Assembly (NCBI RefSeq): GCF_000016745.1
Contig: NC_009483.1
Location: 1,170,001-1,202,000 of the forward strand
DNA length: 32,000 nucleotides
Direction: 5' to 3'
From: Geotalea uraniireducens Rf4
GTDB taxonomy: Bacteria; Desulfobacterota; Desulfuromonadia; Geobacterales; Geobacteraceae
Both the position numbers and the translations under genes were made by a program. Below, one piece after another: positions 13,061-27,822 of this stretch. A model generated the notes under the pieces. That model worked only from the letters and a program-made list of their open reading frames with translations. It was not told the origin of the DNA and searched no databases. Numbering within the stretch: position 1 is the first letter of the stretch; each line of letters opens with the position of its first letter.

Positions 13061-13140
13061 ATGTTACAGTGTACTAGTTTTCTTTAGAATACTGAATAAT
13101 CAGGCGCTTACTTCGTCCTCTGCCAAAGGCAGACTTAACG

Positions 13141-13187
13141 AAACCCGCATTGATACCGGACTGCCCGGTATTGGTGCGGGTTTTTTG
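13141..13187 (+). terminator. Rho-independent terminator after the NifX-like gene
   Basis: Long hairpin aaacccgca...ataccgg-actgc-ccggtat...tgcgggttt followed by TTTTTT (13181-13186). Confidence 0.8.
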
Positions 13188-13240
13188 TTGCCGTCAATCC
13201 GGTTTAATCAACGGTCAGGAAAACAAGGGGTAGCAGAATC

Positions 13241-14263
13241 ATGATGAAAGAAATACCGGTCCAGGAAGCTGTCGGCAGAGTTCTTTTCCACGATATCACC
13301 CGGATCGTGCCGGGGGAATTTGACGGCCGGGCCTTCAAAAAGGGGCATATCATCGAGGAAAGCGATGTCGCCAAACTGCTGAAACTCGGCAAGGACAACA
13401 TCTACATCCTCGATCTGGAAGAGGGGTTCGTTCACGAGAACGAGTCTGCGCTGAGGATTGCCAAGGCGGCGATCGGCGAGGGAATCCAGTTCAGCGAGCC
13501 GGTGGAGGGAAAGGTAACCATGTCGTCGATCACCAGGGGACTGCTCAAGGTGAACGTGGCTGCCCTGGACCGGATCAACGCGATCGACGAAATCGTGCTT
13601 GCGACGCTGCACACCAACCAGGAAGTGCTTCCACGCAAACAGATCGCCGGAACACGCATAATCCCCCTCTTTACCGAAGAGGACAACATCCACGAGGTCG
13701 AGATGATCTGCCGGGAGCACTACCCGGTCATTACGGTCAAACCGTTCAGGTCCCTGAAGGTCGGTCTGGTGACCACCGGGAACGAGGTCTTTCACGGCCG
13801 GATCGAGGACAAGTTCGGACCGGTGGTCAGGGGCAAGGTCGAAGAACTGGGGAGCACGGTGCTGCGGCAGATCCTCGTGTCGGACAACGTTCCCATGACG
13901 GTCAAGGCGATCCGTGACCTCATTGACGAGGGAGCCGAGATGATTGTTGCTACGGGCGGCATGTCGGTGGACCCCGACGACCGGACACCGGCCAGCATTC
14001 GCGCCGCCGGCGGGAGAGTGGTCACCTACGGCTCCCCCACCTTTCCGGGCGCCATGTTCATGCTGGCCTACATCGGCGACGTTCCGGTCATCGGGCTGCC
14101 GGGGTGCGCCATGTACCGCAAGGCCACGGTCTTCGACCTGATCGTTCCCAGGATACTCGCGGGAGAAACGGTGACCAGGGCGGATTTCACCGGACTGGGG
14201 CACGGCGGTTTCTGCTCCGGGTGCATCGAATGCCGCTATCCTAACTGTGGCTTCGGCAAGTAA
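13241..14263 (+). CDS. Molybdopterin-binding (MoaB/MogA/MoeA-type MoCF domain) protein with C-terminal CX2CX2CX4C tail
   Basis: 340 aa. LKVGLVTTGNEVFHGRIEDKFGPVV....MIVATGGMSVDPDDRTP...GSPTFPGAMFMLAYIG..PVIGLPGCAMY is the classic MoCF-biosynthesis-domain signature. Ends GGFCSGCIECRYPNCGFGK. Confidence 0.7.
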   Translation: MMKEIPVQEAVGRVLFHDITRIVPGEFDGRAFKKGHIIEESDVAKLLKLGKDNIYILDLEEGFVHENESALRIAKAAIGEGIQFSEPVEGKVTMSSITRGLLKVNVAALDRINAIDEIVLATLHTNQEVLPRKQIAGTRIIPLFTEEDNIHEVEMICREHYPVITVKPFRSLKVGLVTTGNEVFHGRIEDKFGPVVRGKVEELGSTVLRQILVSDNVPMTVKAIRDLIDEGAEMIVATGGMSVDPDDRTPASIRAAGGRVVTYGSPTFPGAMFMLAYIGDVPVIGLPGCAMYRKATVFDLIVPRILAGETVTRADFTGLGHGGFCSGCIECRYPNCGFGK

Positions 14264-14275
14264 TTGTCTGCAAAC

Positions 14276-14450
14276 CTCACCACGGAGACACAGAGACACG
14301 GAGGAAAAACCCGGCAATAAACCTCGGTCACGCAAAGCCGCAAAGGCGCAAAGAAAAAACAACCCAAAAGTCTTTAAAGATTTTGGGCTTAACCCAAGAA
14401 ACAGGTTTAAGGTTTTGCCTTTCTCCGTGCTTCCGTGTCTCCGTGGTGGG
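14276..14450. repeat. 175-bp palindromic intergenic element (CCACGGAGACAC family)
   Basis: 28-nt arms ctcaccacggagacacagagacacggag (14276-14303) and ctccgtgcttccgtgtctccgtggtggg (14423-14450) match 24/28. Central palindrome cccaaaagtctttaaagattttggg (14363-14387). Produces spurious ORFs on both strands. Confidence 0.8.
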
Positions 14451-14515
14451 TTGAAGTTTTGAGTCATGGATTAACCGGGCTTTCGCCCCGTTAAATTTCA
14501 AAGGAGGAAAATAAT

Positions 14516-17311
14516 ATGATTAAGAAGGTTATGGTCGTCAACGGCATCGAAAGAACGCTGATCGTTGACCAGGAAGCGCTCCTGTCGGACGTGCTGCGCA
14601 AGCAGCTCCATCTGACCGGAACCAAAGTCGGCTGCGGCACCGGCCAGTGCGGCGCGTGCAACGTGATCATGGACGGCAAGCTGGTCCGCTCGTGCGTGGT
14701 GAAGATGAAAAAGGTGGAAAACCTGGCCAAGATCACCACGATCGAAGGGATCGGTACTCCTCTCAACCTTCATCCGATCCAGAAGGCATTCATCTTCCAC
14801 GGCGCCCTGCAGTGTGGCTTCTGCACCCCTGGCTTCATCGTCTCCACCAAAGCGCTGCTCGACGAGAACCCAAACCCTACCCGCGAGGACGTGCGCGACT
14901 GGTTCCAGAAGTACCGCAACGCCTGCCGCTGCACCGGTTACAGCATGATCGTCGACGCGGTGATGGACGCCGCCAAGGTGATGCGCGGCGAGATCTCCGA
15001 TCAGGCCATCGAGTTCAAGACCCCGGCCGACGGTAAGATCTACGGCTCCCGCTTCCCCAGGCCTACCTCCGTGGCAAAGGTCACCGGTCTCTGGGATTTC
15101 GGCGACGACATGGGCACCCAGCTCCCCGAAGGGACCCTGCAGTGCGCACTGGTGCAGCCTGAAGTTTCCCACGCCATCATCAAGGGCATCGACACCTCCG
15201 AGGCGGAGAAGATGCCCGGCGTCTTCAAGGTCGTTACCCACAAGGACGTCAAAGGGAAAAACCGCATTACCGGCCTGATCACCTTCCCGACCAACAAGGG
15301 TGACGGCTGGGATCGCCCGATTCTGAATGACGAGAAGATCTTCCAGTACGGCGACGTTGTTGCCATCGTCTGCGCCGATACCCTGGAAAACGCCAAGGCA
15401 GCGGCGAAAATGGTCAAGGTCGATCTGGAAGTGCTGCCGGCCTACATGAACGCACCGGCCGCCATGGCAGAGGACGCCATCGAGATCCATCCCGGCACGC
15501 CGAACGTCTATTACGAGTGCACCCTCAACAAGGGGGAGGACACCAAGCCGATCATGGCGAAGGCTGCCCATGTGGTCGAGGGGGAGTACTACCTCCAGCG
15601 TCAACCCCATATGCCGATCGAGCCCGATGTCGGCTTCGCCTACATCGATGACCTGAAGCGGGTGGTGATCCACTCGAAATCGATCGCCATCCATCTGCAC
15701 CTTTACATGATCGCCCCGGGCCTGGGCGTTGAACCGCACGAAATCGTGGTGGTCCAGAACCCCACCGGCGCCACCTTCGGCTACAAGTTCAGCCCGACCC
15801 TGGAGGCGCTGGTCGGCGCAGCGGCCATGGCAACCGGCCGCCCCTGTTTCCTCGGCTACGACTGGTACCAGCAGCAGACCTACACCGGCAAACGCTCGCC
15901 GATGTGGTTCAAGATCAAGATGGGCGCCGACCAGGACGGCAAGCTCCTTGCCATGGAAACCGACTGGAGCTGCGACCACGGTCCCTACTCCGAGTTCGGC
16001 GACCTGGTAACCACGCGCGGCGCACAGTTCACCGGCGCAGGGTACGACATCAAGAACATCCGCGGCGTAGGCCGCACCGTCTGCACCAACCATGGTTGGG
16101 GCTCCGCCTTCCGCGCCTACGGCTCTCCCCAGAGCTTCTTCGCCTCCGAGTCCCTCATGGATGAACTGGCCAAGAAGATGGGTGTCGACCCGTTCGAACT
16201 CCGTTACAAGAACATCTACCGTCCCGGCGCCACCACGCCGACCGGACAGACCCCGGAAGTCTTCTGCTTCGAGGAGCTGTTCGACCTCATGCGTCCCAAG
16301 TACCAGGACGCCCTGTTGCGCGCCAAGAACGGCTCCACCGAAACCAAGAAACGTGGCGTCGGCGTTTCTCTCGGCGTGTACGGCTGCGGTCTCGACGGTC
16401 CGGACACCTCGAGTGCCTGGGTTGAACTGAACCCGGACGGGAGCGTCACCGTCGGCAATGCCTGGCAGGACCATGGCCAGGGGTCTGACGGCGGGACTGT
16501 CACCTTCGCCCACAACACCCTGCGTCCTCTCGGCCTGAAAGCGGATCAGATCCGTCTCAGCATGAACGACACGAGCCTCCACCCGAACTCCGGCCCCTCC
16601 GGCGGGAGCCGCCAGAACGTGGTCACCGGGAACGCGATCCATGCGGCTTGCGTCCTGCTGCTCGATGCCCTGCGCAAGGCGGACGGCACCTACCGCACCT
16701 ACGACGAAATGGTAAAGGAAGGCAAATCGGTCAAGTACGAAGGGAGCTGGACCACCCCGAGCACCCACATGGACGACAACATGCAGGGTGCGCCGTTCTG
16801 CATCTACATGTACGCCCTCTTCATGTCCGAGGTGGAAGTTGACGTCACCACCGGCAAGACGACCGTGCTGAAGATGACCTACGCAGGCGACAACGGCACC
16901 ATCACCAACCGGCTTACAGTCGACGGACAGGTGTACGGCGGTCTGGTCCAGGGTGTAGGTCTTGCCCTGACCGAAGACTTCGAAGACCTGAAGAAGCACA
17001 CCACCCTGATCGGTTCCGGCTTCCCGTTCATCAAGGACGTTCCCGACGACATGGAGCTGATCTACACCGAGTATCCGCGCAAAGACGGCGCCTTCGGTCA
17101 GGCCGGTGTAGGCGAGGGGCCGCTGACAGCCCCGCACGCCTCCATCATCAATGCCATCGACAGTGCCTGCGGCGTGCGCATCAGGTCCATCCCGGCATAT
17201 CCGGCCAAGGTCCTGGCTGCACTGAAGTCGGAAAAGAAGGCCTTCGACGTCAGCGATGCCGTGGCAGGCGGTTACATGTCACAGGGTGGCATCGAAACAT
17301 TGAAGAAGTAA
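14516..17311 (+). CDS. mop: Molybdenum aldehyde oxidoreductase, xanthine-oxidase family, D. gigas Mop type (2x[2Fe-2S] + MCD-binding domains in one chain)
   Basis: AAAGGAGGA RBS. The N-terminus MIKKVMVVNGIERTLIVDQEALLSDVLRKQLHLTGTKVGCGTGQCGACNV closely resembles my memory of the D. gigas MOP N-terminus. Second cluster motifs CGFCTPGF and CRCTGY. Mo-domain motifs GATFGYK and QAGVGEGP (catalytic Glu). 931 aa. Confidence 0.9.
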   Translation: MIKKVMVVNGIERTLIVDQEALLSDVLRKQLHLTGTKVGCGTGQCGACNVIMDGKLVRSCVVKMKKVENLAKITTIEGIGTPLNLHPIQKAFIFHGALQCGFCTPGFIVSTKALLDENPNPTREDVRDWFQKYRNACRCTGYSMIVDAVMDAAKVMRGEISDQAIEFKTPADGKIYGSRFPRPTSVAKVTGLWDFGDDMGTQLPEGTLQCALVQPEVSHAIIKGIDTSEAEKMPGVFKVVTHKDVKGKNRITGLITFPTNKGDGWDRPILNDEKIFQYGDVVAIVCADTLENAKAAAKMVKVDLEVLPAYMNAPAAMAEDAIEIHPGTPNVYYECTLNKGEDTKPIMAKAAHVVEGEYYLQRQPHMPIEPDVGFAYIDDLKRVVIHSKSIAIHLHLYMIAPGLGVEPHEIVVVQNPTGATFGYKFSPTLEALVGAAAMATGRPCFLGYDWYQQQTYTGKRSPMWFKIKMGADQDGKLLAMETDWSCDHGPYSEFGDLVTTRGAQFTGAGYDIKNIRGVGRTVCTNHGWGSAFRAYGSPQSFFASESLMDELAKKMGVDPFELRYKNIYRPGATTPTGQTPEVFCFEELFDLMRPKYQDALLRAKNGSTETKKRGVGVSLGVYGCGLDGPDTSSAWVELNPDGSVTVGNAWQDHGQGSDGGTVTFAHNTLRPLGLKADQIRLSMNDTSLHPNSGPSGGSRQNVVTGNAIHAACVLLLDALRKADGTYRTYDEMVKEGKSVKYEGSWTTPSTHMDDNMQGAPFCIYMYALFMSEVEVDVTTGKTTVLKMTYAGDNGTITNRLTVDGQVYGGLVQGVGLALTEDFEDLKKHTTLIGSGFPFIKDVPDDMELIYTEYPRKDGAFGQAGVGEGPLTAPHASIINAIDSACGVRIRSIPAYPAKVLAALKSEKKAFDVSDAVAGGYMSQGGIETLKK

Positions 17312-17333
17312 GCTGAAGCGGTTGCGACACGGA

Positions 17334-17365
17334 GGCGAATGCGGCGCTCAAGTGCCGCGTTCGCC
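17334..17365 (+). terminator. Stem-loop after mop (weak terminator or mRNA-stabilising hairpin)
   Basis: 12-bp stem ggcgaatgcggc/gccgcgttcgcc (one G-U pair), 8-nt loop, followed only by CTAGTTTCTT. Confidence 0.4.
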
Positions 17366-17377
17366 CTAGTTTCTTGA

Positions 17378-17485
17378 TTCCCCCCTTTGAGAAAGGGGAC
17401 CCAAACTTCGGGCCTAAAGGGCTAGCGGGGATTTGCTTCGGTCATTGGAAATCCCCCTCAATCCCCCTTTCTCAAAGGGGGACTT
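17378..17485. repeat. REP-like palindromic repeat (CCCCCTTT..AAAGGGG family)
   Basis: cccccctttgagaaagggg (17380-17398), the GGACCCAAACTTCGGGCCTAAAGG core (17397-17420), ggaaatccccctcaatccccctttctcaaaggggg (17458-17481). Confidence 0.8.
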
Positions 17486-17509
17486 AACAGCCAATGGTGG
17501 TTATACGTC

Positions 17510-19825
17510 ATGGAACAGAACAAACTGCGGGAATGGGAATACAAATGTATCCAGGAAGAACCTCCCCAATGCACGGCAGGCTGCCCCATCCATGTGGATG
17601 CCCGGCTTTTTGTCAAGCAGGCCGGCCAGGGGGACTGGGAAGCTGCCCTGAAAACACTGGCTAAGACCATGCCGTTTCCAAAGATACTCGGCCGCGTCTG
17701 TGACCATCCGTGCGAACCGGCATGCAAGCGGGGTGAGGCCGGTGAACCGATCGCCATCGGCGCACTGGAGAGGGCCTGTGTCGAAACTGCGCAGGAGAAG
17801 GTCAAGGCGGTAATGCTGCCCCGGAAGGACAAGAGGGTTGCCGTCATCGGCAGCGGCCTGAGCAGCCTGACGGTAGCCTGGGACCTGCTCCGCAAAGGAT
17901 ACAGAATAACCGTTTTTGAACCGGGGGAAAGACTTGGCGGCACCCTCTGGGAGTTTCCCGAAACCATCCTGCCGCCTGATGTCATTACTGAGGAATTATC
18001 GCTTTTGGAGAGCCTTGGCGCTGTAATCACCCTCTCTGCCCAGGTGGCGCGGGACGATTTCATTGCCGGCATCCATGGAGAATTCGACGCTGTTTTTGTC
18101 GGCCTGGCTGTGGCTGATTTGAACCTGCATGACCTGGAGCTTGAACCCCTCACTCTGGCCACCAGCCGGAAGGGACTGTTTGCCGGCGGAGCCTGCAGGA
18201 AGGACGGCCGACTGTCTCCGATCACCGAGGCATTTGAAGGGCGCCGCGCCGCGACCTCCATAGATCGATACGTGATGAACGTCTCCATGGATAGCGGCCG
18301 GGAAAATGAAGGACCGTTCGTCACCAGGCTCTACACCAATGTCGAGGGGCTCGAACCCCTTCCGCGGCTTACCCCGGCCGACCCGAACTCCGGTTATTCC
18401 ACCGACGAGGCTATCCGGGAAGCGGAGCGTTGCATCCAGTGCGAGTGCATGGAGTGCGTCAAGGTCTGCCTTTACCTGGAGCGCTACAAGGGGTATCCGA
18501 AGAAGTATGCCCGGCAGGTCTTCAACAACGAGCGGGTCATCTATGGCGCGGCCCGTACGAAGAACCAGTTCGTCAATTCCTGCAGCACCTGCGGTCTCTG
18601 CGAGACCGTTTGTCCGAACGATTTCTTCATGGGGGACCTCTGCCTGCAGGCGCGCAGGACCATGAACGAGCAGAAATTGATGCCCCCTTCCTTCCACGAG
18701 TTTGCCCTTAAGGACATGGCCCACGGCAACGGAGAGCGCTTTGCCCTCTGCAGCCACGAGCCGGGTCGGCAGGAGAGCGCCTGGCTGTACTTCCCGAGCT
18801 GCCAGCTCTGCGCCACCTCACCCGGCGAGGTGCTTTCCTCGTACCGCCACCTGCGGGAAAGGCTTTCAGGAGGGGTCGGGATCATGCTCCGCTGCTGCGG
18901 CGCTCCCGCATTCTGGGCGGGGCGCGACGACCTGTTCCGGGAATCGCTGGATACGGTCCGCAACGAATGGGAACGCCTTGGGCGGCCACGGGTCGTCACC
19001 GCCTGTTCCACCTGCCGGAGCATCTTTCAGGATCACCTTCCCGAGATGGAGTCCGTCTCCCTCTGGAAGGTCATCGAGGAGACCGGGCTTCCCGGCGGGG
19101 AAGGGCCCAGTCCCGCAATCGTCGGAGGGACAACCGTTGCCGTTGCCGACCCCTGCATCACTCGTAACGATCCTGAGACACAGGGAAGTGTACGGCGGAT
19201 CGTGCAGTCGCTGGGGATCAGTATCGAAGAGCTCCCCTTGAGCGGCGAGAAGCCCGAGTGCTGCGGATACGGCGGGCTCATGTACAACGCCAATCCCGGC
19301 CTCGCCCGTGATGTGATCGCCCATCGGGCAACGGTGAGCGACAACGACTACCTGGCCTACTGCGCCATGTGCCGCGATAATTTCGCCGCTGCCGGAAAGA
19401 GGGTCAGTCACCTCATCGAGCTCCTCTTTCCCACCGCCCCTGGTGGGGACCCGGCGGCCCGCGGCTGGATATCCTGGTCCGAGCGCAGGACGAACCGCGC
19501 CAAGGTTCGGGAAGGGATACTCCGGGAGCTCGGCGGGAAGGGAGAAGGAATGGTCGAGGATTACGAGGGCATAGTGCTTCGGATGGCCCCGGAGGTGCGC
19601 AAAAGGATCGACGAACGGCGGATTCTGGAGGACGACCTGCGCCGGGTGATCGATCACGCCGAGCGTACCGGAAAACGGCTGGAAAACCTCCGGACCGGGT
19701 GCTACCGGGCCTACTGCCAGACGGAAAACGTGACCTTCTGGGTGGACTATACCCCCGGAGAAGAAGGGTTCACGGTCCATAACGCTTACTGCCATCGCAT
19801 GAAAATCGTGGGGGTCAAGCAATGA
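17510..19825 (+). CDS. Fused oxidoreductase: GltD-like FAD/NAD(P) module + 2x[4Fe-4S] ferredoxin + two CCG (HdrD/GlpC-like) domains + unknown C-terminal domain
   Basis: 771 aa. CPIHVDARLF...RVCDHPCEPACKR and KRVAVIGSGLSSLTVAWDLLRKGYRITVFE (GltD-like). CIQCECMECVKVC...CSTCGLCETVCP (dicluster). Two CCG motifs (MLRCCGAP, KPECCGYGG). Confidence 0.75.
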   Translation: MEQNKLREWEYKCIQEEPPQCTAGCPIHVDARLFVKQAGQGDWEAALKTLAKTMPFPKILGRVCDHPCEPACKRGEAGEPIAIGALERACVETAQEKVKAVMLPRKDKRVAVIGSGLSSLTVAWDLLRKGYRITVFEPGERLGGTLWEFPETILPPDVITEELSLLESLGAVITLSAQVARDDFIAGIHGEFDAVFVGLAVADLNLHDLELEPLTLATSRKGLFAGGACRKDGRLSPITEAFEGRRAATSIDRYVMNVSMDSGRENEGPFVTRLYTNVEGLEPLPRLTPADPNSGYSTDEAIREAERCIQCECMECVKVCLYLERYKGYPKKYARQVFNNERVIYGAARTKNQFVNSCSTCGLCETVCPNDFFMGDLCLQARRTMNEQKLMPPSFHEFALKDMAHGNGERFALCSHEPGRQESAWLYFPSCQLCATSPGEVLSSYRHLRERLSGGVGIMLRCCGAPAFWAGRDDLFRESLDTVRNEWERLGRPRVVTACSTCRSIFQDHLPEMESVSLWKVIEETGLPGGEGPSPAIVGGTTVAVADPCITRNDPETQGSVRRIVQSLGISIEELPLSGEKPECCGYGGLMYNANPGLARDVIAHRATVSDNDYLAYCAMCRDNFAAAGKRVSHLIELLFPTAPGGDPAARGWISWSERRTNRAKVREGILRELGGKGEGMVEDYEGIVLRMAPEVRKRIDERRILEDDLRRVIDHAERTGKRLENLRTGCYRAYCQTENVTFWVDYTPGEEGFTVHNAYCHRMKIVGVKQ

Positions 19826-20025
19826 ACCTGTCGGAAGAGGCAAAGGGGTGGAGTTGCACTGCCTGCGGGAAACCGCTCGAAGTGGTCAAGGTGAGCTTTA
19901 CCTACATGAAAGGGAACTTTGAGGTCGACCTTCCAGCCTGCAGCGGCTGTGGTCTCGTCCTCGTCTCCGAGGAGCTGGCGACCGGAAAGATGGCCGATGC
20001 GGAGAGAATCCTGGAGGACAAGTAG
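19822..20025 (+). CDS. 67-aa zinc-ribbon mini-protein, translationally coupled to the fused oxidoreductase
   Basis: ATGA start/stop overlap at 19822-19825. Two CxxC pairs (CTACG, CSGCG). Position matches a small redox protein I recall in the D. vulgaris mop neighbourhood (memory only). Confidence 0.6.
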   Translation: MNLSEEAKGWSCTACGKPLEVVKVSFTYMKGNFEVDLPACSGCGLVLVSEELATGKMADAERILEDK

Positions 20026-20090
20026 GGGCGGACGGCGTCCGCCCTATTCCTGGCGCATGGTCGCAATTCCGGGCGCATGCCATGCGCCCC
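20025..20090. repeat. Short palindromic repeats (GGGGCGGAC hairpin; GGGCGCATG/CATGCGCCC palindrome)
   Basis: ggggcggac-ggc-gtccgccc (20025-20045). gggcgcatg-c-catgcgccc (20071-20089), with a partial extra copy ggcgcatgg at 20052-20060. Confidence 0.65.
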
Positions 20091-20105
20091 TACGGACAGG
20101 TCGGC

Positions 20106-20819
20106 ATGTTTAATGTTGAAATACCACCGTCGTCCCCGTATGAATCGCCCCTCTTGCGCGCGGTAACCGGCACGACGATCCGGCCTGGCGGGCTCGCGCT
20201 GACCGAGCGGGGAATCGCATTGTGCCGCTTCCCCTCCGGCGCACGGCTGCTTGACGTGGGGTGCGGCGCTGGCGCAACCGTGGAGCATCTGCGCAGCCGG
20301 TACGGTTTTGCCGCCGCTGGTGTCGATATCTCCCGGAAGCTCATCGCGGAAGGGCTGCTCCGGAACCCGGCGCTGCCGCTGGCAGAGGGTGCGGCGGAAG
20401 CGCTTCCCCTTGACGCGGCGGCTCTGGACGGCGTCCTGTGCGAGTGCGTCCTCTCCCTCCTGGCCGAGCCGCGCCGGGCGCTGGAGCAGTTCCATCGGGT
20501 GCTGCGCCCCGACGGCTACCTGATCCTGAGCGATATGTATGACCGCAACCCGGCGGGGGGGACGCAGCTGCACGAAGTTTCATCGGAAGGCTCCCCTCTG
20601 GGGGAAGTTGCGCGCGACACGCTGGAAAGCCTCTTGACCGGAAGCGGTTTTGCCACTTGCTTCTGGGAGGACCACACCCCCCTCCTGAAGGAGTTGGCCG
20701 CTCGCCTTGTGCTGGCTTACGGTTCCCTGGAGGGGCTTTGGTGCCCGGCTGGCGGCGCCGGATGCGCGGGGGCACGGCCGGGCTACTATCTGCTCGTAGC
20801 CCGAAAAAAACCTGATTAG
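20106..20819 (+). CDS. Class I SAM-dependent methyltransferase
   Basis: Motif I LLDVGCGAGAT; post-I acidic GVDIS; LRPDGYLILSD. Start set at ATG 20106 because the track ATG 20082 lies inside the palindromic repeat. Weak RBS. Confidence 0.7.
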   Translation: MFNVEIPPSSPYESPLLRAVTGTTIRPGGLALTERGIALCRFPSGARLLDVGCGAGATVEHLRSRYGFAAAGVDISRKLIAEGLLRNPALPLAEGAAEALPLDAAALDGVLCECVLSLLAEPRRALEQFHRVLRPDGYLILSDMYDRNPAGGTQLHEVSSEGSPLGEVARDTLESLLTGSGFATCFWEDHTPLLKELAARLVLAYGSLEGLWCPAGGAGCAGARPGYYLLVARKKPD

Positions 20820-20958
20820 TACTAAATCTTCCGTAGAAGTTACCCCCCTTTGAGAAAGGGGGGCAAGGGGGGATTTTCCTGGCTGCGATGAAAGGCAAAT
20901 CCCCCTAAATCCCCCTTTCATAAAGGGGGACTTGGTCTTTCGGAAGATTGGTACTAAT
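20815..20958. repeat. 144-bp composite palindromic repeat (CCCCCCTTT..AAAGGGGGG family) closed by an outer inverted repeat
   Basis: Outer arms attagtactaaatcttccg (20815-20833) and cggaagattggtactaat (20941-20958). Inner hairpins at 20843-20863 and 20911-20929. Confidence 0.8.
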
Positions 20959-20986
20959 CGAAAAAAACAATGATGGAGACTGAACC

Positions 20987-21430
20987 ATGGACCAGACCTT
21001 GTTGATGCGCATGATGGAATTGTCCTATAACGGTTATTACTGCAGCCAGATCCTGGTCATCCTGGCCCTGGAGGCCCAGGGGAAGAGCAACCCCGACCTG
21101 ATCCGGGCGATGGGGGGATTGGCCAACGGCTGCGGTTTTGCCGGCGGACCCTGCGGCACCCTGACCGGAGCCGCCTGCCTGCTCAGCCTCTATGCCGGCA
21201 AGGGGACCGACGAGGAATACGAGGACGAGCGCCTCAAGTACATGCTTCAGGACCTTGGGGAGTGGTTTTCCCAAACCTATGGAAGCCGGTACGGAGACGT
21301 CACCTGCGAGTCGATCGTCGGGGACCGGACCGAAATCCGCCAGCGTTGCGGAGCCATCGTAGCCGAAACCTACGCCAAGGTGATGGAACTGTTGACCGCC
21401 AGCGGCTACGACGTTACGGCCGGGAAATAA
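20987..21430 (+). CDS. C_GCAxxG_C_C family protein
   Basis: 147 aa with the family layout: C (YYCSQ), G-x-CGxxxGA (GGPCGTLTGAACLL), C (VTCES), C (RQRCGA). Confidence 0.7.
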   Translation: MDQTLLMRMMELSYNGYYCSQILVILALEAQGKSNPDLIRAMGGLANGCGFAGGPCGTLTGAACLLSLYAGKGTDEEYEDERLKYMLQDLGEWFSQTYGSRYGDVTCESIVGDRTEIRQRCGAIVAETYAKVMELLTASGYDVTAGK

Positions 21431-21465
21431 GGGACTTGGAACTTATCGATATACCGTTTTTCAAT

Positions 21466-21556
21466 GTAGGGGCGAAGCAAAAGCCCCACCTGCTTCACCC
21501 TATTTGCCACGGAGATCAAAGGCGGGCGAAGCAGATGAAACGTGCTTCGCCCCTAC
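21466..21556. repeat. Palindromic repeat (GTAGGGGCGAAGCA family), two tandem hairpins
   Basis: Perfect 14-nt inverted repeat gtaggggcgaagca (21466-21479) and tgcttcgcccctac (21543-21556). Internal partner copies ctgcttcaccc and ggcgggcgaagcag. Confidence 0.75.
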
Positions 21557-21589
21557 TCGGGTGCCGACTCGAATCCGGAGGTGACTGAA

Positions 21590-22966
21590 ATGAATAATTG
21601 CAACAGGACCGTCAGCACGGCCACCGAGAGCCTCTGTCCCAGCTGCCTGGCGCGGATTCCCGCCGAGCGGCAGCAGCATGGGGACGATGTCGTCCTGGTG
21701 AAACGCTGCCCGGAGCATGGTGAATTCCGCTCCCTCGTCTGGCGGGGGGAGCCGTCTCTCTCCGGCTGGTCGCGACCGAAAAAAACCGTTCGCATCGGCG
21801 GCCACCTGGGAGGGGAGACGCGCGGCTGCCCTTTCGACTGCGGCATCTGCGCCGGGCACCGGCAGCAGTCGTGCACTGTCCTCATCGAAGTGACCGAGCG
21901 CTGCAACCTGGCCTGTCCTTACTGTTTCGCAGCTGCCGGTCGGCAGGAAGTGCACGACCCGCCGCTGGCGGTTATCGCAGAACGTCTCCGCGCTGCCATG
22001 CAGGCGAGCGGTCCGCACAACATCGTCCAGCTCTCCGGCGGCGAGCCGACGGTCCGTGACGACCTGCCGGCCATTATCACTCTGGGGCGCGAGCTGGGAT
22101 TCCCCTTCATCCAGCTGAACAGCAACGGCGTGCGGTTGGCCGCCGACCCGGAATATGCCGGGGAACTGAAGCGAGCCGGTCTCTTTTCCGTCTTCCTCCA
22201 GTTCGACGGTACGGAAGACCGGATCTACCGGGCGATCCGCGGGCGTTCCCTGCTCGCGGAAAAACTGCGGGCCATCGAGCACTGCGCCGCCAACGGCCTC
22301 GGTGTGGTCCTCGTCCCGACCATCGTACCGGGGGTTAATACCGGGAATATCGGCGCCATCCTGATGCAGGCCCTGGAACTGGCGCCGGCTGTCAGGGGTG
22401 TCCATTTTCAGCCCGTAGCCTATTTCGGCCGTCACCCCGAGCCCCCTGTCAGCGAGGACCGTATCACACTTCCCGACCTGATGACGGCCATCGAGGACCA
22501 GACCGACGGCCTCATGAAGATGGAGCATTTTCGCCCACCGGGATGCGAGCATCCGCTCTGCTCGTTCCACGGCAACTTCCTCCGTCTACCCGACGGCGGA
22601 ATCCAGCCCCTGACCAGCCATACGCCGGCCGGTTGCTGCGGGGCGAGCGAGCTGGCAAATGAGGGAACCGGCCGGGCGGTCTCCTTCGTAGCCCGCCAAT
22701 GGGCTGCTCCCGCTTTGGCAGAAGGTGGTCCGGCCGGTGCCGACGGTGCGCTCAGCCTGGACCTCTTCCTTGAAAACCACCGGACCAACACCTTCGCCGT
22801 TTCCGCCATGGCCTTCCAGGATGTCTGGAACCTGGATCTGGAACGGGTGCAGGAGTGCTGCATCCACGTGGCCGCCCCGGACGGCCGGATGATCCCGTTC
22901 TGCCTCTACAATCTGACCTCCGCCGAGGGAATACCGCTGTACCGGAACAGGACGCGATGCCGTTAA
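21590..22966 (+). CDS. Radical SAM enzyme with N-terminal Cys-rich (zinc-ribbon-like) segment
   Basis: GGAGGTG RBS then ATG 21590. N-terminal CPSCL...CPEHG. CX3CX2C cluster motif in EVTERCNLACPYCFA. GGEPT SAM-binding motif (QLSGGEPTVRDD). 458 aa. Confidence 0.8.
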   Translation: MNNCNRTVSTATESLCPSCLARIPAERQQHGDDVVLVKRCPEHGEFRSLVWRGEPSLSGWSRPKKTVRIGGHLGGETRGCPFDCGICAGHRQQSCTVLIEVTERCNLACPYCFAAAGRQEVHDPPLAVIAERLRAAMQASGPHNIVQLSGGEPTVRDDLPAIITLGRELGFPFIQLNSNGVRLAADPEYAGELKRAGLFSVFLQFDGTEDRIYRAIRGRSLLAEKLRAIEHCAANGLGVVLVPTIVPGVNTGNIGAILMQALELAPAVRGVHFQPVAYFGRHPEPPVSEDRITLPDLMTAIEDQTDGLMKMEHFRPPGCEHPLCSFHGNFLRLPDGGIQPLTSHTPAGCCGASELANEGTGRAVSFVARQWAAPALAEGGPAGADGALSLDLFLENHRTNTFAVSAMAFQDVWNLDLERVQECCIHVAAPDGRMIPFCLYNLTSAEGIPLYRNRTRCR

Positions 22967-24285
22967 CCCCGCTGGAACCATGGATAAAGAGTAAAATCGG
23001 CCTGGCAGCGACGGAGCCGTTGACCCGGCCCCTCCTGGAAGGCTACCAGCTGCGGAAGCTGCGGGAGACCATGGCGCATGCCCGACGCCACAGCCCCTTC
23101 TACCGGAAACACCTGCAAGGGTGCGGCGAGCCCGACTCTCTGGAGGAGGTGGCCCTACTTCCCTTTACCTCTCCGGCGGACGTCCAGGAGGATGACCTGC
23201 GCTTTCTCTGCGTCTCCCGGGCCGAGGTGGCCCGGGTGGTGACCCTCCGGAGCTCGGGGACCACGGCGCCTGCCAAGCGGCTCCATTTCACAGCGGCAGA
23301 CCTGGAACTGACCGTGAATTTCTTTCACCACGGCATGTCTACCATGGTGCAACCGGGACAGCGGGTGCTCATCCTCATGCCCGGCGAGTTGCCCGGCAGC
23401 GTCGGCGACCAGCTGGTCAAGGGGCTCAGACGCCTGGAGGTGGAGGGGATCGTGCACGGCCTGGTGCATGATGCCGAGGAGGTACTACACTCCATCGAGA
23501 CCCTGGAAATCGACTGCCTGGTAGGGATTCCGGTCCAGGTGCTGGCCCTGGCCAGGCACCCGGCGGCCACTGCGCTGCCGCCGAACCGGCTGAAAAGCGT
23601 GCTCCTGAGCGCCGACTACGTCCCGGCGGCCATTGTCCTTGAGGTGAGCGCTGTCTGGGGAGCTGCGGTGTACAACCACTACGGGATGACCGAGATGGGG
23701 CTAGGCGGCGGGGTTGAATGCAGCCGGCGTTGCGGCTATCACCTGCGGGAGGCCGACCTTTACGTCGAAGTTGTCGACCCTGAGAGCGGCCGGCCGCTCC
23801 CCGACGGCGAACGGGGAGAGGTTGTTTTCACCACGCTGACCCGCTGGGGAATGCCGCTCATCCGCTACCGAACCGGCGACCTGGCGCGCTTCCTGCCGGA
23901 GCCCTGTTCCTGCGGTACGGTGCTGCGCCGCCTGGAACGGGCCAGGGGGAGACTGGCCGGTACGGTGCGCCTGAGTAACGGTGGGGCGCTCGACATCACC
24001 GACCTGGACGAGGCGCTCTTTCCCCTGCCGCTTCTCCTCGATTACCAGGCCGTGTTGAGCGAAGACGACGGCAGGGACGTCCTGGACGTAACCATCAAGA
24101 CGACAGCGACGGATAATGGGGAGGCTTCCCACCAGGTGCTCCGGGCGCTGTTTGATGTGCCGGCGGTGCGGGCGGCCGTGGCGGATGGGAGCCTCACCCT
24201 GAGAGCCGCCGGTCATGGCGCATTCATAACAACTGGAAGCATCAAGAGAACGGTCCTTGACCGGAGAAAGGAGCATATATGTTGA
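22957..24285 (+). CDS. PaaK/F390-synthetase-like adenylate-forming (AMP-dependent) ligase
   Basis: ATG 22957 overlaps the radical SAM stop (22964-22966). Motifs RSSGTTAPAKR (P-loop SSGTTG-like), NHYGMTEMG, YRTGDLA. N-terminal LEGYQLRKLRETMAHARRHSPFYRKHL is typical of PaaK-like ligases. Confidence 0.8.
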   Translation: MPLTPLEPWIKSKIGLAATEPLTRPLLEGYQLRKLRETMAHARRHSPFYRKHLQGCGEPDSLEEVALLPFTSPADVQEDDLRFLCVSRAEVARVVTLRSSGTTAPAKRLHFTAADLELTVNFFHHGMSTMVQPGQRVLILMPGELPGSVGDQLVKGLRRLEVEGIVHGLVHDAEEVLHSIETLEIDCLVGIPVQVLALARHPAATALPPNRLKSVLLSADYVPAAIVLEVSAVWGAAVYNHYGMTEMGLGGGVECSRRCGYHLREADLYVEVVDPESGRPLPDGERGEVVFTTLTRWGMPLIRYRTGDLARFLPEPCSCGTVLRRLERARGRLAGTVRLSNGGALDITDLDEALFPLPLLLDYQAVLSEDDGRDVLDVTIKTTATDNGEASHQVLRALFDVPAVRAAVADGSLTLRAAGHGAFITTGSIKRTVLDRRKEHIC

Positions 24286-25334
24286 TTTCCTGGGCAGCAG
24301 ATACGATCTGTCCGGTGCTGGAGCGGGGGGAGGAGCTGGTGCTGGCGACGGTGATCAGCAAGTCCGGCTCGGCCCCTTGTCTGGCGGGCTCGAAGATGAT
24401 CGTCCATGGGGACGAAACCTCCGTCGGCACCATCGGCGGCGGGGCGCTGGAGGCGGAAGGGCAGAAAAGGGCCGGTGACGTCTTCAGGAGCGGCGTTTCG
24501 CAGATATTCACCTTCGACCTTTCCGGCCGGGACGCGGCCAGCATGTCGATGATCTGCGGCGGGCGGGTGGAGATATTCCTGGAGCTGATCGACGCCGATC
24601 CGGCCAATCTGCAGGTGTTCCGGGGACTGCGCGATGCGCTGCAAACCGGGGAGAAATGTTTCATTGTCACCGACCTGGGCGAGGTCGGGGCCGATATCCG
24701 GAGGATCAACCGCTGCCTGGTCAGACAAGACGGAACGGTTACCGGGGTGTTCAATCACCCTGAGCCGTGGCTCGCTACCCTGGCGGAACAGGCGCACCGA
24801 TCGACCTACCCGGTACTCACCACCCTGGAACGGCGCCGGTTCCTCGTCGAACGCTGCTATACCCCGAGCACCGTCTACATCTTCGGCGCCGGCCATGTCT
24901 CCCAGCATGTGGCGGAGCTTGCCGGCAAGATCGCTTTTCAGACCTTTGTACTGGACGACCGGGAGGAATTCGCCAACCGGGAACGTTTCGCGACCGCAAG
25001 CGAGGTGCGGGTCATCGACTCGTTCGCCGACTGTTTCAGCGGCCTGGAGGTGGGGGGAGACAGCTACGTTGTCATCGTTACCAGGGGGCACGCCCACGAC
25101 AAGGTTGTCCTGGAACAGGCCCTCCAGACCGGCGCGGGCTATATCGGCATGCTCGGCAGCCGGAAGAAAAGCGCGGAAATCCGCAAGGCGCTCCTGGCCG
25201 AAGGGTTCGGCGAGGAGGAGGTCGGTCGGTTCCGCTGCCCGATCGGGCTGGATATCGGCGCCGAAACCACGGCTGAGATTGCCGTCAGCATCGTGGCGGA
25301 ATTGATCCAGGCCAGAGCCGAAAGAGGAGAATAA
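24279..25334 (+). CDS. XdhC/CoxF-family molybdenum-cofactor insertion chaperone
   Basis: Overlaps the previous stop by 7 nt. N-terminal XdhC_CoxI-like VLATVISKSGSAP...GTIGGG. Rossmann part VYIFGAGHVSQHV...VVIVTRGHAHD...YIGMLGSRKK...CPIGLDIGAETTAEIAVSI. Confidence 0.85.
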   Translation: MLISWAADTICPVLERGEELVLATVISKSGSAPCLAGSKMIVHGDETSVGTIGGGALEAEGQKRAGDVFRSGVSQIFTFDLSGRDAASMSMICGGRVEIFLELIDADPANLQVFRGLRDALQTGEKCFIVTDLGEVGADIRRINRCLVRQDGTVTGVFNHPEPWLATLAEQAHRSTYPVLTTLERRRFLVERCYTPSTVYIFGAGHVSQHVAELAGKIAFQTFVLDDREEFANRERFATASEVRVIDSFADCFSGLEVGGDSYVVIVTRGHAHDKVVLEQALQTGAGYIGMLGSRKKSAEIRKALLAEGFGEEEVGRFRCPIGLDIGAETTAEIAVSIVAELIQARAERGE

Positions 25335-26456
25335 ATGGCCGGTAACGTGGCGGCAATTGTGCTCGCAGCAGGGTTTTCCTCACGGATGGGAGAGTTCAAA
25401 CCGCTCCTCCCGCTCGGCGAAGCCATGGTCCTGGAACGGGTCGTTACCCTTTTTCAAGGAGCCGGAATAGGGGATGTGCGGGTCGTTGTCGGTCACCGGG
25501 CGGTGGAACTGGAACCCATCGTGTCACGGCTCGGCGCACGCGTTATTGCCAATCCCCATTACCGGGACGGCATGTTTACCTCCGTGGCGGCAGGCGTGGC
25601 GACGGTCGGGGAGGAGGTGGACGCCTTCTTCGTGCTCCCTATGGACGTGCCGCTGGTGAGGGGGGCAACCATCCGGCGTCTCCTTGACGCGTACCGGCAG
25701 GAGCCGTGCGACGTCATCTATCCCCGATTCCTGAGTCAGCGGGGACATCCGCCGCTCATCGCCGGCAGGCGCGCCCCGGAGATTGCCGGCTGGCAGGATA
25801 CGGGCGGACTCAGGGCGGTCCTGGCGCAGTGGGACCCCGGTGCCCGGGATGTGGACGTGGCGGATGAGCTCATCCTCTGGGACATGGACACGCCCGACGA
25901 TTATCTGCTCCTGCAGAGAAAGGCCGATCGGCTGGAGATCCCGACCGAAGAGGAATGCCTGGTGCTCCTGGAAAGGGTGTTGCGCGTCGACGACCGGATC
26001 ATCCGCCATGGCAAGGCAGTGGCGGACGTGGCCGTGCTGCTGGGGACGGCGCTGAATCGGGCAGGCTGCGGCCTGGATATTTCCCTCCTGACAGCGGCCG
26101 GCCTGCTGCACGACCTTGCCAGGAGGGAACCGGACCATGCGCGGATCGGGGCACGCCTTCTGCGAGACATGGGGTATGGTGCGGTGGCCGAACTGGTCGC
26201 CGTCCACATGGATATGTCCGTAACCGAAGGGGAACCGGTCGCTGCCGGAGAGGTGATCCATCTGGCGGACAAACTGGTCCAGGGGGAGCGGCGTGTCTCT
26301 GTGACGGAACGATTCCGCGCCGCGGTGGAACGCCATGCCCACGATCCCGCAATCCTCGGCAGGGTTGCAACCCGGCTGAAAACCGCCATGACCATCCAAC
26401 AGCGCCTGGAAGCCATACTGGGGCGTTCACTGACGGAGATAACGGATACCTTATGA
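25335..26456 (+). CDS. MobA/MocA-like molybdenum-cofactor nucleotidyltransferase fused to a C-terminal HD domain
   Basis: Starts directly after the xdhC stop. AAIVLAAGFSSRMGEFKPLLPLG...FFVLPMDVPLV (MobA-like NTP transferase). C-terminal half has RHGKAVA...AAGLLHDLAR...VHMD (HD phosphohydrolase-type). Confidence 0.8.
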   Translation: MAGNVAAIVLAAGFSSRMGEFKPLLPLGEAMVLERVVTLFQGAGIGDVRVVVGHRAVELEPIVSRLGARVIANPHYRDGMFTSVAAGVATVGEEVDAFFVLPMDVPLVRGATIRRLLDAYRQEPCDVIYPRFLSQRGHPPLIAGRRAPEIAGWQDTGGLRAVLAQWDPGARDVDVADELILWDMDTPDDYLLLQRKADRLEIPTEEECLVLLERVLRVDDRIIRHGKAVADVAVLLGTALNRAGCGLDISLLTAAGLLHDLARREPDHARIGARLLRDMGYGAVAELVAVHMDMSVTEGEPVAAGEVIHLADKLVQGERRVSVTERFRAAVERHAHDPAILGRVATRLKTAMTIQQRLEAILGRSLTEITDTL

Positions 26457-27178
26457 ACAATAACCGGGACAACTCTCGCACTAACACCATCTATCTCCTG
26501 CGGCACGGTGATCTCCGGCAGGATGGGGTCAAGCGCTACATCGGCCAGGCGGACCTTCCGCTCAACGCATCCGGCCGGGCCCAGGCATTGAACTGGCAGC
26601 AGGAACTGGCCCATATTCCCCTGCGCCGCATCTTCTGCAGCGACCTCAGCCGCTCCTATGAAACTGCCTGCCTCATAGCGGAGGGGAGAAGCGAATCGGT
26701 CCAGCCGTTCCCCAAGTTGAGGGAAATCAACCTGGGGGCGTGGGACGGCCAGTCGGTAGATGACGTGCGCCGGTTCTATCCGGGCGAATACGAGAAACGC
26801 GGCGCCGATATGGTTTACTATCGTCCCCCTGCAGGAGAATGTTTTGCCGACGTGGCGGCTCGGGTTATACCGCTGTTCGAGGAGATAGTGCGCAGCGCAT
26901 CCGGCAATATGCTGATTGTCGGTCATTCAGGTGTGAACAAGGTCATCCTCTGTCATATCCTTGGTATGCCATTGGAGAATCTCTTTCGCATGCGGCAGGA
27001 GTATGGCTGCCTGAATGTCATTGAATGCGGCATGGGTTCCGTGCAGCTGTGCGGAATGAATATCCTGCCGGTTAAAGGGCGCTTTCGGATGGAAATGGAA
27101 CAAGCCGTTGTCAAACCCCAATGCGGCCCCTTTCAACTGCCGGTTTCAGGATTAAAAAACCCGCTGAATCTTTCATGA
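26453..27178 (+). CDS. Histidine phosphatase family protein (CobC/PGAM-like)
   Basis: ATGA overlap with the upstream stop. IYLLRHGD (RHG motif), SDLSRSYETA, MLIVGHSGVNKVIL (second catalytic His). The track ORF from 25955 is an out-of-gene 5' extension in the same frame. Confidence 0.8.
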   Translation: MNNNRDNSRTNTIYLLRHGDLRQDGVKRYIGQADLPLNASGRAQALNWQQELAHIPLRRIFCSDLSRSYETACLIAEGRSESVQPFPKLREINLGAWDGQSVDDVRRFYPGEYEKRGADMVYYRPPAGECFADVAARVIPLFEEIVRSASGNMLIVGHSGVNKVILCHILGMPLENLFRMRQEYGCLNVIECGMGSVQLCGMNILPVKGRFRMEMEQAVVKPQCGPFQLPVSGLKNPLNLS

Positions 27179-27193: not shown

Positions 27194-27200
27194 GGACTCA

Positions 27201-27452
27201 TTAGGCAGCGGGCTTCAATTCCTCGCGAATCACCTGCCGCAAAATATCCGCCAGCGATTTGTCCTGGTGAATGTATTCCTTCAGAACCTGGTTGATCATG
27301 GTCTGGTAGTTGCCGCCCCCCTGCTTGTCGGCCTTTGCCCTGAACCAGTCGAGAACTTCGTTGTCCAGACGGATGGTTATGCGGGACTTGCCCGGTTCGG
27401 GCTGAACCACGGCACCACGCTTCCCCTTGCCGAAATCATATTCCTTCTTCAT
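27201..27452 (-). CDS. brnA: BrnA-family antitoxin (RHH/CopG-like)
   Basis: 83 aa. SRITIRLDNEVLDWFRAKADKQGGGYQTMINQVLKEYI-type signature (here GGGNYQTMINQVLKEYI). Overlaps the 3' end of the brnT-like gene by 17 nt. Confidence 0.8.
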   Translation of the reverse strand: MKKEYDFGKGKRGAVVQPEPGKSRITIRLDNEVLDWFRAKADKQGGGNYQTMINQVLKEYIHQDKSLADILRQVIREELKPAA

Positions 27453-27711
27453 AGGTCTGCCTCTCTTTCTTCGTGGCCTTCCGGGCCGAGATGATTCTTA
27501 TGACATCCGCGACACGGCTTGCATGAATGACAACGAGTATTTTCAGCGTAAAGTCCATGCCGATGGTGATGAAACGACATTCACCTTCGGCATCTTGGTC
27601 TTCGACGGTTATGGCCAGTTCGTCTTCGAATACGCCAACGGCATCGGCAAAATCCACGCCGTGCTTTTTACGATTCAATGCTGCCTTGTCCGGGTCCCAT
27701 TCGAATTTCAT
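27436..27711 (-). CDS. brnT: BrnT-family toxin (DUF497 ribonuclease)
   Basis: MKFEWDPDKAALNRKKHGVDFADAVGVFED...IISARKATKKE is the DUF497/BrnT signature. ATG 27711 preferred over the track GTG 27726, which abuts a promoter-like element. Confidence 0.8.
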   Translation of the reverse strand: MKFEWDPDKAALNRKKHGVDFADAVGVFEDELAITVEDQDAEGECRFITIGMDFTLKILVVIHASRVADVIRIISARKATKKERQTYEEGI

Positions 27712-27717
27712 GATTTC

Positions 27718-27745: not shown

Positions 27746-27749
27746 GTAT

Positions 27750-27771: not shown

Positions 27772-27822
27772 AATAGAGAACGACCCCTTAATACTACCTT
27801 GGACGAACAAGGGTGAACGGAA

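Follow-up and report, generated by a model that had tools for sequence, protein, structure and literature searches.

A Geobacter-type mop operon and its conserved radical SAM accessory genes

The window analyzed here is a stretch of 32,000 nucleotides from Geotalea uraniireducens Rf4 (NC_009483.1, positions 1,170,001 to 1,202,000 of the forward strand), in which positions 13241-27178 hold a string of eleven genes around mop, the gene for an aldehyde oxidoreductase of the Desulfovibrio gigas type. Work on enzymes of this type, the structural prototype of the xanthine oxidase family, goes back about 40 years. Judged from family assignments, the string is the Geobacter-type (Geobacterales) copy of a widely conserved and already catalogued mop operon. 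The central intuition of a preliminary description of this DNA, that the accessory genes are functionally tied to mop, holds, and we tentatively suggest a reading of the whole operon in three layers: the making of the molybdopterin cytosine dinucleotide (MCD) cofactor, a redox partner for Mop, and a cassette around a radical S-adenosylmethionine (SAM) enzyme.

Genes and regulatory features of the operon

The eleven open reading frames (ORFs) are co-directional on the + strand, uninterrupted and without internal stops (Table 1). The preliminary description had given the same genes, with four tight junctions, and each of these was found where it had been placed: the TrsS and PaaK-like ligase genes overlap by 10 nt (22957/22966), the ligase and XdhC genes by 7 nt (24279/24285), the XdhC and MocA-HD genes abut with 0 nt between them (25334/25335), and the MocA-HD and phosphatase genes share a 4-nt ATGA overlap (26453/26456). 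An additional ATGA overlap (19822/19825), absent from that list, links the Fe-S/CCG gene with the mini-protein gene. The most likely start of the radical SAM gene is ATG 21590 and not GTG 21542, since residue 27 of the GTG ORF is the first that the family model covers.

Table 1. Features of the mop operon and its leader in the window
Feature	Coordinates	Strand	Support
Moco-II RNA motif (RF01713), candidate cis-regulatory leader	13100..13148	+	57.2 bits vs gathering score 35, full-length
MoCF-domain protein, 340 aa	13241..14263	+	PF00994, residues 176-305
Mop, D. gigas-type molybdopterin-dependent aldehyde oxidoreductase	14516..17311	+	NF045668, 1665.8 bits vs cut-off 1100
Terminator-like hairpin directly after mop, 14-bp stem with 10 G-C pairs	17334..17365	+	consensus scan only
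Flavin/Fe-S/CCG oxidoreductase, diclust_near_Sec	17510..19825	+	NF045663, 1044.6 bits vs cut-off 530
DVU_1557-family / DUF7479 mini-protein, 67 aa	19822..20025	+	NF045645, 95.3 bits vs cut-off 60
DVU_1556-family class I SAM methyltransferase	20082..20819	+	NF045667, 246 bits vs cut-off 155
DVU_1555-family C_GCAxxG_C_C protein, five conserved Cys	20987..21430	+	NF045669, 179.3 bits vs cut-off 103
TrsS, radical SAM, Cys form	21590..22966	+	NF045646, 662.7 bits vs cut-off 490
DVU_1553-family PaaK-like adenylate-forming ligase	22957..24285	+	NF045666, 477.9 bits vs cut-off 300
XdhC-family aldehyde oxidoreductase maturation factor (molybdenum cofactor chaperone)	24279..25334	+	NF045664, 423.3 bits vs cut-off 350
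DVU_1551-family MocA-like NTP transferase and HD phosphohydrolase fusion	25335..26456	+	NF045665, 447.9 bits vs cut-off 315
CobC-like histidine phosphatase, last gene	26453..27178	+	TIGR03162 alpha-ribazole phosphatase, 161.9 bits vs cut-off 162.9; His_Phos

Domains were called with Pfam and families with NCBIfam equivalog models at their curated cut-offs, and both agreed with every domain call of the preliminary description. Nine of the eleven proteins score above the cut-offs of NF045645, NF045646 and NF045663-NF045669 (named pterin_aldehy, diclust_near_Sec, DVU_1557, DVU_1556, DVU_1555, TrsS, DVU_1553, XdhC_rel_AOR and DVU_1551), with the phosphatase and the MoCF protein as exceptions, and the neighbourhood is thus one that has been catalogued before. 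The family names of the style DVU_1551/1553/1555/1556/1557, which the preliminary description had mentioned, belong to real models whose cut-offs the window proteins pass. The gene set had also been called uncharacterised; that does not apply to its cataloguing, but it stands for function, since none has been assigned by experiment to the accessory genes in the literature available. We found no experimental work on them there, including under aldehyde oxidoreductase combined with radical SAM, XdhC or C_GCAxxG_C_C topics, and the locus tags DVU1551-1559 returned only two mentions, both unrelated, of DVU1559. The radical SAM/ligase pair was assigned by the profile searches to no characterised pathway. 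TrsS (NF045646) stands in a table of selenoprotein families attributed to Haft & Tolstoy 2025 in a review of 2026 (PMC13188914). The model names, together with the locus of the congener Nitratidesulfovibrio termitidis, imply a corresponding cluster DVU_1551-DVU_1559 in D. vulgaris Hildenborough.

The transcription unit probably begins upstream of 13241, at the Moco-II RNA, which lies about 90 nt 5' of the MoCF gene and outside 13241-27178. The element belongs to RF01713 by its covariance score above the gathering threshold and by its position upstream of a gene related to the molybdenum cofactor (Moco). Among the comparison loci (L numbers), Moco-II RNA also precedes the MoCF gene in L004, L005 and L007, with two copies in L007. 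In L002 its place before the operon is taken by the Moco riboswitch RF01055, which recurs downstream of the phosphatase gene. Scans for sigma-70 promoters and terminators gave site counts not above the shuffled expectation, and therefore individual sites are only suggestive; the hairpin after mop may be an attenuator or may mark the border of two units. Compared with L001, the closest genome locus, the DNA is 96-97% identical over 13095-17365 and 68-83% identical past 17510, which places a recombination breakpoint in the spacer between mop and the Fe-S/CCG gene (17334-17509), right after the hairpin. Because identity drops there, the leader-MoCF-mop unit must have had a recent history separate from that of the downstream genes.

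Conservation with mop and a portable five-gene core

At least 591 species-level genomes have relatives of TrsS according to a genome scan with a TrsS alignment, from which 80 loci were taken for comparison; a metagenome scan seeded with Mop supplied the test in the reverse direction. The order Mop, Fe-S/CCG protein, DUF7479, methyltransferase, C_GCAxxG protein, TrsS, ligase is repeated in dozens of genomes from Desulfobacterota, Bacillota, Chloroflexota, Nitrospirota, Campylobacterota and Alphaproteobacteria. An arrangement recurring in dozens of genomes of at least six phyla is far from chance. The closest TrsS homologues of the window protein are from Geobacteraceae and Desulfuromonadales. 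The gene order of the window is that of the NCBIfam mop neighbourhood in D. gigas, N. termitidis and dozens of other genomes, and the full set is present in both named species and in one Acidobacteriota genome. The window copy differs in coming from a Geobacterales/Desulfuromonadales-type genome, with the Cys form of TrsS and a Moco-II leader. In N. termitidis and the Acidobacteriota genome DUF7479 is fused to the upstream oxidoreductase, whereas in the window it is a separate gene.

The expected co-conservation with mop was borne out in both directions. Where 7 kb or more of sequence precedes TrsS (64 loci), a Mop orthologue is present at 52 loci; these 52 all carry the full-length Fe-S/CCG protein as well, ten loci have neither, two have the Fe-S/CCG protein alone and none has Mop alone. 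All four core partners of TrsS were detected at 53 of 61 fully covered loci. Conversely, TrsS lies near five of six metagenomic Mop orthologues with 55% identity or more and 9 kb or more of downstream sequence, whereas module genes lie near none of the 24 more distant xanthine-oxidase-family paralogues in the same scan. Mop orthologues of 55-57% identity were also seen on four human-gut metagenome contigs (L090, L091, L098, L099), all with XdhC, MocA-HD and phosphatase genes upstream on the opposite strand and two of them (L090 and L091) with the full accessory set downstream of mop, so the system is also found in gut anaerobes.

The accessory genes separate into two groups. XdhC (38/48 Mop loci vs 1/8 Mop-less loci), MocA-HD (37/48 vs 1/8) and the CobC-like phosphatase (33/48 vs 1/8) are grouped by these counts with Mop and not with the radical SAM set. 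The MoCF gene is upstream of mop in 23 of the 48 Mop loci; it is present at the D. gigas mop locus, as is the phosphatase gene. The preliminary description had treated the radical SAM, ligase, methyltransferase, C_GCAxxG_C_C and phosphatase genes as one tailoring unit; this needs to be divided, since the phosphatase tracks MocA-HD and XdhC and the other four travel with the Zn-ribbon mini-protein. We suggest that DUF7479, the methyltransferase, the C_GCAxxG_C_C protein, TrsS and the ligase make up a portable five-gene core.

Nor is the core tied to Mop alone. It adjoins the tungsten-type aldehyde:ferredoxin oxidoreductase (AOR; AFOR family) in L036, L049, L068, L077 and Geobacter metallireducens GS-15, where AFOR is accompanied by an Fe-S subunit and MoeA, and DMSO-reductase-family (FdhA-like) enzymes in L039 and L068. 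These loci have no large Fe-S/CCG protein, and their DUF7479 forms one protein with a 90-aa domain, a homologue of the domain with which the Fe-S/CCG protein ends. In the G. metallireducens GS-15 locus (L084, CP000148.1 2011000-2031482) the ligase and C_GCAxxG genes are divergent from the genes for AFOR, its Fe-S subunit, MoeA, a 160-aa DUF7479 fusion, the methyltransferase and TrsS.

Proteins of the three proposed layers

The assignment of layer 1 (Moco-II leader, MoCF, Mop, XdhC, MocA-HD, phosphatase) to MCD synthesis and insertion is well supported. Mop has two [2Fe-2S] domains and both Moco/MCD-binding domains, with no flavin/FAD domain, and aligns to PDB 1SIJ/1VLB with 1387 bits over residues 1-904; it has a 27-aa C-terminal extension (17231-17311) past the 905-position family model, the crystallised enzymes being 907 aa. 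The MCD cofactor has been demonstrated for the D. gigas and D. desulfuricans enzymes only (PMC10223205). As in the canonical MCD maturation of Escherichia coli PaoABC and the Rhodobacter capsulatus xanthine dehydrogenase, the window has an XdhC/PaoD-type chaperone and a MocA-like NTP_transf_3 protein. Here, in contrast, the MocA part is fused to an HD phosphohydrolase (NTP_transf_3 plus HD in Pfam) and scores below the MocA equivalog TIGR03310 (126.7 bits vs 186.45), to which it is clearly related as the separate family NF045665, and there are two additions without counterpart in those systems, the CobC-like phosphatase and a MoCF protein with a Cys cluster. The phosphatase, 1 bit under the TIGR03162 cut-off, has MocA-HD and XdhC and not cobalamin genes as its context. 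The MoCF protein, with no NCBIfam model above cut-off, joins an uncharacterised N-terminal half to a MoaB/MogA/MoeA-type molybdopterin-binding domain; its C289, C325, C328, C331 and C336 are invariant, and the C-terminal motif GHGGxCxxCxxCxYPxCxFGK suggests a metal or Fe-S site. In our view the layer supplies and inserts MCD in the ordinary way, and its unexplained additions are the HD domain, the CobC-like phosphatase and the MoCF protein with its Cys cluster. No model for YqeB, YqeC or SelD was matched by the operon proteins, and none of the three is among the recurrent neighbours, whole genomes not having been scanned.

The Fe-S/CCG protein, whose NF045663 family is named pyridine nucleotide-disulfide oxidoreductase/dicluster-binding protein, has a GltD-like Fer4_20 and one dinucleotide-binding domain, followed by a 2x[4Fe-4S] domain, two HdrD/HdrB-type CCG motifs and a C-terminal domain of roughly 90 aa, and its Cys ligand sets are conserved. 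It shares the two CCG motifs with the full Cys pattern, the ferredoxin-like 2x[4Fe-4S] domain and the GltD-type N-terminus of Fer4_20 plus dinucleotide-binding domain with heterodisulfide-reductase-type CCG proteins joined to GltD-like modules (relatives of HdrD, DsrK, GlpC and TfrB). In contrast to these, the window protein has only one detectable Rossmann-type domain and, at its C-terminal end, the unique 90-aa domain plus the DUF7479 module. Mop is without a flavin and its physiological partner has long been sought; arguments about its physiological electron acceptor and its role still draw on reconstitution with flavodoxin in vitro (PMC10223205). The strict co-occurrence (52/52 Mop-bearing loci) makes the Fe-S/CCG protein the best candidate so far for the dedicated redox partner of Mop, that is, for the missing flavin or electron outlet.

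The DUF7479 protein has a rubredoxin-like Zn ribbon with two CxxC motifs and a C-terminal helix ending -LEDK. In 43 aligned sequences (the window protein and 42 locus orthologues), the four Cys of the CxxCG knuckles are invariant and every sequence ends ...E..LEDK. A search of 1.84 billion cluster representatives gave 158 members at E <= 0.001; among the best 150, which were inspected, the LEDK end is present in 105 and a hydrophobic-Glu-variable-Lys end in about 130, and DUF7479 is always at the extreme C-terminus, free or fused. Fusions join it to the 90-aa domain, to CCG proteins or to full Fe-S/CCG proteins, and to nothing else. AlphaFold models a fused 90-aa-domain/DUF7479 protein (pLDDT, the predicted local distance difference test, 87.7) as an alpha/beta domain, the ribbon and a terminal helix. 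The free invariant C-terminus is a hallmark of carrier or scaffold proteins and could equally be a docking element.

By analogy only, DUF7479 can be likened to LysW carriers and to lipoyl or biotinyl arms, as a small Zn ribbon with a free, acidic, conserved tail, alongside an ATP-dependent ligase and a radical SAM protein with auxiliary clusters, as LipA acts on octanoyl-lysine. It differs from these systems in that no sequence or fold relationship with them was found and no modification observed, and the window ligase is PaaK-like, not ATP-grasp or LplA/BirA. Membership in the LysW family was tried and rejected, as DUF7479 matched NF045645 only, without a significant PDB fold match, and the ligase is PaaK-like. 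A peptide cassette of the PQQ (pyrroloquinoline quinone)/mycofactocin type was rejected as well: at 46-55 bits the matches to the PqqE and MftC models fall far short of the cut-offs, many enzymes of 700-900 aa have DUF7479 as their C-terminal domain, and no PqqD-like fold match was obtained.

The closest relative of TrsS is the archaeal tetraether lipid synthase Tes/GDGT-MAS, MJ0619 (PDB 7TOL). They have in common the N-terminal rubredoxin-like ribbon, the CX3CX2C motif, the auxiliary-cluster cysteines and the C-terminal CCIH...FC motif, all cluster ligands being kept. TrsS aligns to 7TOL with 297 bits (phmmer) over residues 11-323 and 401-443, and the Tes model NF045702 gives 359.7 bits over model positions 2-323 of 486, below its cut-off of 450. 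C16/C19/C40, C80/C84/C87/C95 and C105/C109/C112 are invariant, and C423/C424/C438 are 85-96% conserved. The two enzymes differ in TrsS residues 324-400, which do not align with the lipid-binding part; a conserved PPG[C/U]E..LCSF...CC insert replaces that segment, and the genomic context of TrsS is pterin enzymes, not lipid synthesis. In two Desulfobacteraceae loci (L073, L076) an in-frame TGA is aligned to window TrsS Cys319 (about 22544-22546, PPG-C-E motif), and this position is therefore the TrsS selenocysteine site. The same search for selenocysteine in the other module proteins of the 80 loci gave, within the protein body, no further position aligned to TGA apart from L014, with an isolated in-frame TGA in its Fe-S/CCG gene; the remaining matches lie near termini, in that single locus or at gapped positions.

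TrsS paralogues were also seen outside the mop context, as DUF5714 fusions in Pelobacter propionicus (L083, CP000482) and L075 and as a CobW GTPase fusion in L051. The P. propionicus paralogue is followed by genes for a rhodanese, a methyltransferase and a CGGC protein, with ArsR-type, NifU and CbiA-like genes and an SBF/Acr3-like transporter gene nearby, and the L075 paralogue adjoins CbiMNQ transporter genes. A comparison of DUF5714 with a Zn ribbon plus C_GCAxxG-like domain by hhalign gave E = 0.008 and a probability of 5%.

As to the other core enzymes, the ligase has phenylacetate-CoA ligase 2Y27 as its best solved relative (E = 4e-34), a relationship at the level of the superfamily only, and it is far below the PaaK models TIGR02155 (116.7 bits vs 646) and NF041878 (143.8 bits vs 700). 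The methyltransferase has generic similarity only to solved methyltransferases, and the C_GCAxxG_C_C protein has no relative among solved structures. An ArsM-like identity of the methyltransferase was tried and rejected, since its resemblance to solved ArsM is negligible (E of about 8e-4, confined to a short stretch) and it matches generic class I enzymes best.

Interpretation and alternatives

We suggest, as a tentative best explanation, that the operon works in three layers. Layer 1 would make and insert MCD. In layer 2 the Fe-S/CCG protein would supply the flavin and the electron outlet that Mop itself is without. The cassette of layer 3 would attach to producers of very low-potential electrons (Mop, tungsten-type AOR and FdhA-like enzymes) and serve their electron-acceptor side, centred on DUF7479, the pterin not being remodelled. 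With low confidence, we propose that it acts on or with the DUF7479 -LEDK tail: the ligase would adenylate or acylate the tail (...E..LEDK-COOH), TrsS would functionalise it by radical chemistry and the methyltransferase would cap it, with the C_GCAxxG_C_C protein as a thiol or redox relay. The outcome would be a redox group carried by the protein and handled at the CCG (heterodisulfide-reductase-type) site. In a conservative variant of layer 3, DUF7479 would be a rubredoxin-like carrier whose tail merely docks to TrsS and the CCG enzyme. The most specific version is improbable, more so than the first two alternatives weighed below: here -LEDK would be the attachment or maturation site of a new protein-bound redox group working like a lipoyl-type swinging arm, for which the ligase acylates or adenylates the tail, TrsS forms a C-S or C-C bond and the methyltransferase completes the group, and very low-potential electrons would pass from Mo/W aldehyde or formate oxidisers to the HdrD-like site.

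Several observations weigh against this three-layer proposal. No fusion of DUF7479 with TrsS, with the ligase or with the methyltransferase was found. The invariant tail may be no more than a docking helix; in the AlphaFold model it is a helix of pLDDT 84-89. A fold search of the fused 90-aa/DUF7479 model against the PDB gave no match at E <= 0.001 and no analogue among carrier proteins or RiPP-recognition (ribosomally synthesised and post-translationally modified peptide) domains, with weak RelE-like similarity only; without a significant match, there is no support for a fold like PqqD, a RiPP recognition element or LysW. Since the AOR-linked versions are without CCG domains, the CCG site is not obligatory to core function. 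On the metagenome contig Ga0074199_1000043 (L092), a Mop orthologue of 61% identity is followed by the Fe-S/CCG protein, DUF7479 and the C_GCAxxG protein, with no TrsS, ligase or methyltransferase within 10 kb, the sole exception to the Mop-to-TrsS association in the sample. Finally, the association with three pterin-enzyme families fits maturation of the metal site equally well.

That possibility is the main rival, which we consider unlikely: the core would install or repair a labile ligand (a terminal sulfido, possibly a selenido) or assemble the Mo/W centre, with TrsS Cys/Sec319 and the C_GCAxxG_C_C protein as sulfur or selenium relays. It would account for a core that accompanies three unrelated families (Mop, AFOR, FdhA-like), all of which include terminal-sulfido members (PMC13653126), and that is embedded among Moco genes and Moco-responsive RNA leaders. 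A class-V, cysteine-desulfurase-like aminotransferase is encoded in seven loci (L033, L037, L040, L041, L065, L020, L007), in the four Sporomusa loci (L033, L037, L040, L041) inside the cluster and directly upstream of TrsS, and the rhodanese after the P. propionicus paralogue points the same way. As isolated, most D. gigas Mop has Mo with three oxygen ligands, as would fit the loss of a labile ligand, but no unusual ligand has been reported in the native enzyme, where oxo replaces sulfido (PMC10223205). Moreover, XdhC and cysteine desulfurase already account for sulfuration in studied systems, the methyltransferase and the adenylating ligase would have no obvious role, and the invariant DUF7479 tail would be left unexplained. 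Ranked after it, and somewhat less likely again, is a small-molecule pathway, in which Mop or AOR would make a carboxylic acid that the PaaK-like ligase activates and TrsS and the methyltransferase modify, either for catabolism or to give a diffusible thiol or redox metabolite reduced by the CCG enzyme. The ligase is indeed of the aryl/alkyl-acid-activating PaaK family, and in L049 and L077 its gene has the AFOR gene as immediate neighbour; genes for Fe-type alcohol dehydrogenase (15 loci) and for NAD-dependent aldehyde dehydrogenase (5 loci) recur nearby, and CCG domains are typical of disulfide-reducing enzymes (HdrB/HdrD). The neighbourhood, however, has no conserved CoA-dependent downstream enzymes, the core also accompanies FdhA-like enzymes, the window operon is under a Moco-related leader and not a substrate-responsive one, and an obligate Zn-ribbon protein with an invariant C-terminus would remain unexplained.

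Covalent tailoring of the MCD of Mop by adenylation, radical chemistry, methylation and dephosphorylation, the route favoured in the preliminary description, is very unlikely. In its favour are the tight co-conservation with mop and the interleaving of cofactor genes with accessory genes, and MJ0619 was once annotated as a pterin dimethyltransferase, a name that persists at JGI on several TrsS homologues; MJ0619 has since been shown to be a lipid synthase (PDB 7TOL; PMC9433317). D. gigas carries the full set beside mop, yet Mop from this native host shows at 1.28 Å a well-defined, ordinary MCD, pterin rings included, with Mo bound by two dithiolene sulfurs and three oxygen ligands (PMC10223205), which makes covalent tailoring of MCD unlikely. 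In addition, the core accompanies bis-molybdopterin/W or bis-molybdopterin guanine dinucleotide enzymes and not only MCD ones, and the phosphatase segregates with MocA and XdhC and not with the radical SAM set. The least probable alternative, and a distant one, is metalloid or organometallic processing, with the radical SAM enzyme and the methyltransferase acting on As, Se or similar, for example in the protection of arsenite-sensitive pterin enzymes. Pairs of radical SAM enzymes and ArsM make organoarsenicals, ArsM-type models are among the weak secondary NCBIfam matches of the methyltransferase, an ArsR-type regulator and an SBF/Acr3-like transporter are encoded close to the P. propionicus paralogue, and TrsS is a selenoprotein in some species; against this, neither the window nor the conserved neighbourhood has arsenic-resistance genes.

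Under the three-layer proposal, the operon offers in the Fe-S/CCG flavoprotein a concrete candidate for the missing flavin partner of Mop. The five-gene radical SAM cassette links three pterin-enzyme classes and is a selenoprotein system in some species, and its chemistry, once solved, could reveal a new maturation step of Mo/W enzymes or a new protein-bound cofactor. Any difficulty in obtaining active recombinant enzymes of this kind may find its explanation there as well. Its hosts include the tractable D. gigas, G. metallireducens, Sporomusa and Clostridium, and probably D. vulgaris.

Upstream of the operon in the window (1075-10805) lies a run of multihaem c-type cytochrome genes with a gene for a DUF3108 protein. 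The downstream region (27200-32000) has a lower GC content (about 50%), with a gene for a YhcG/DUF1016 PDDEXK nuclease and, on the minus strand, a weak JetD_C-like ORF.

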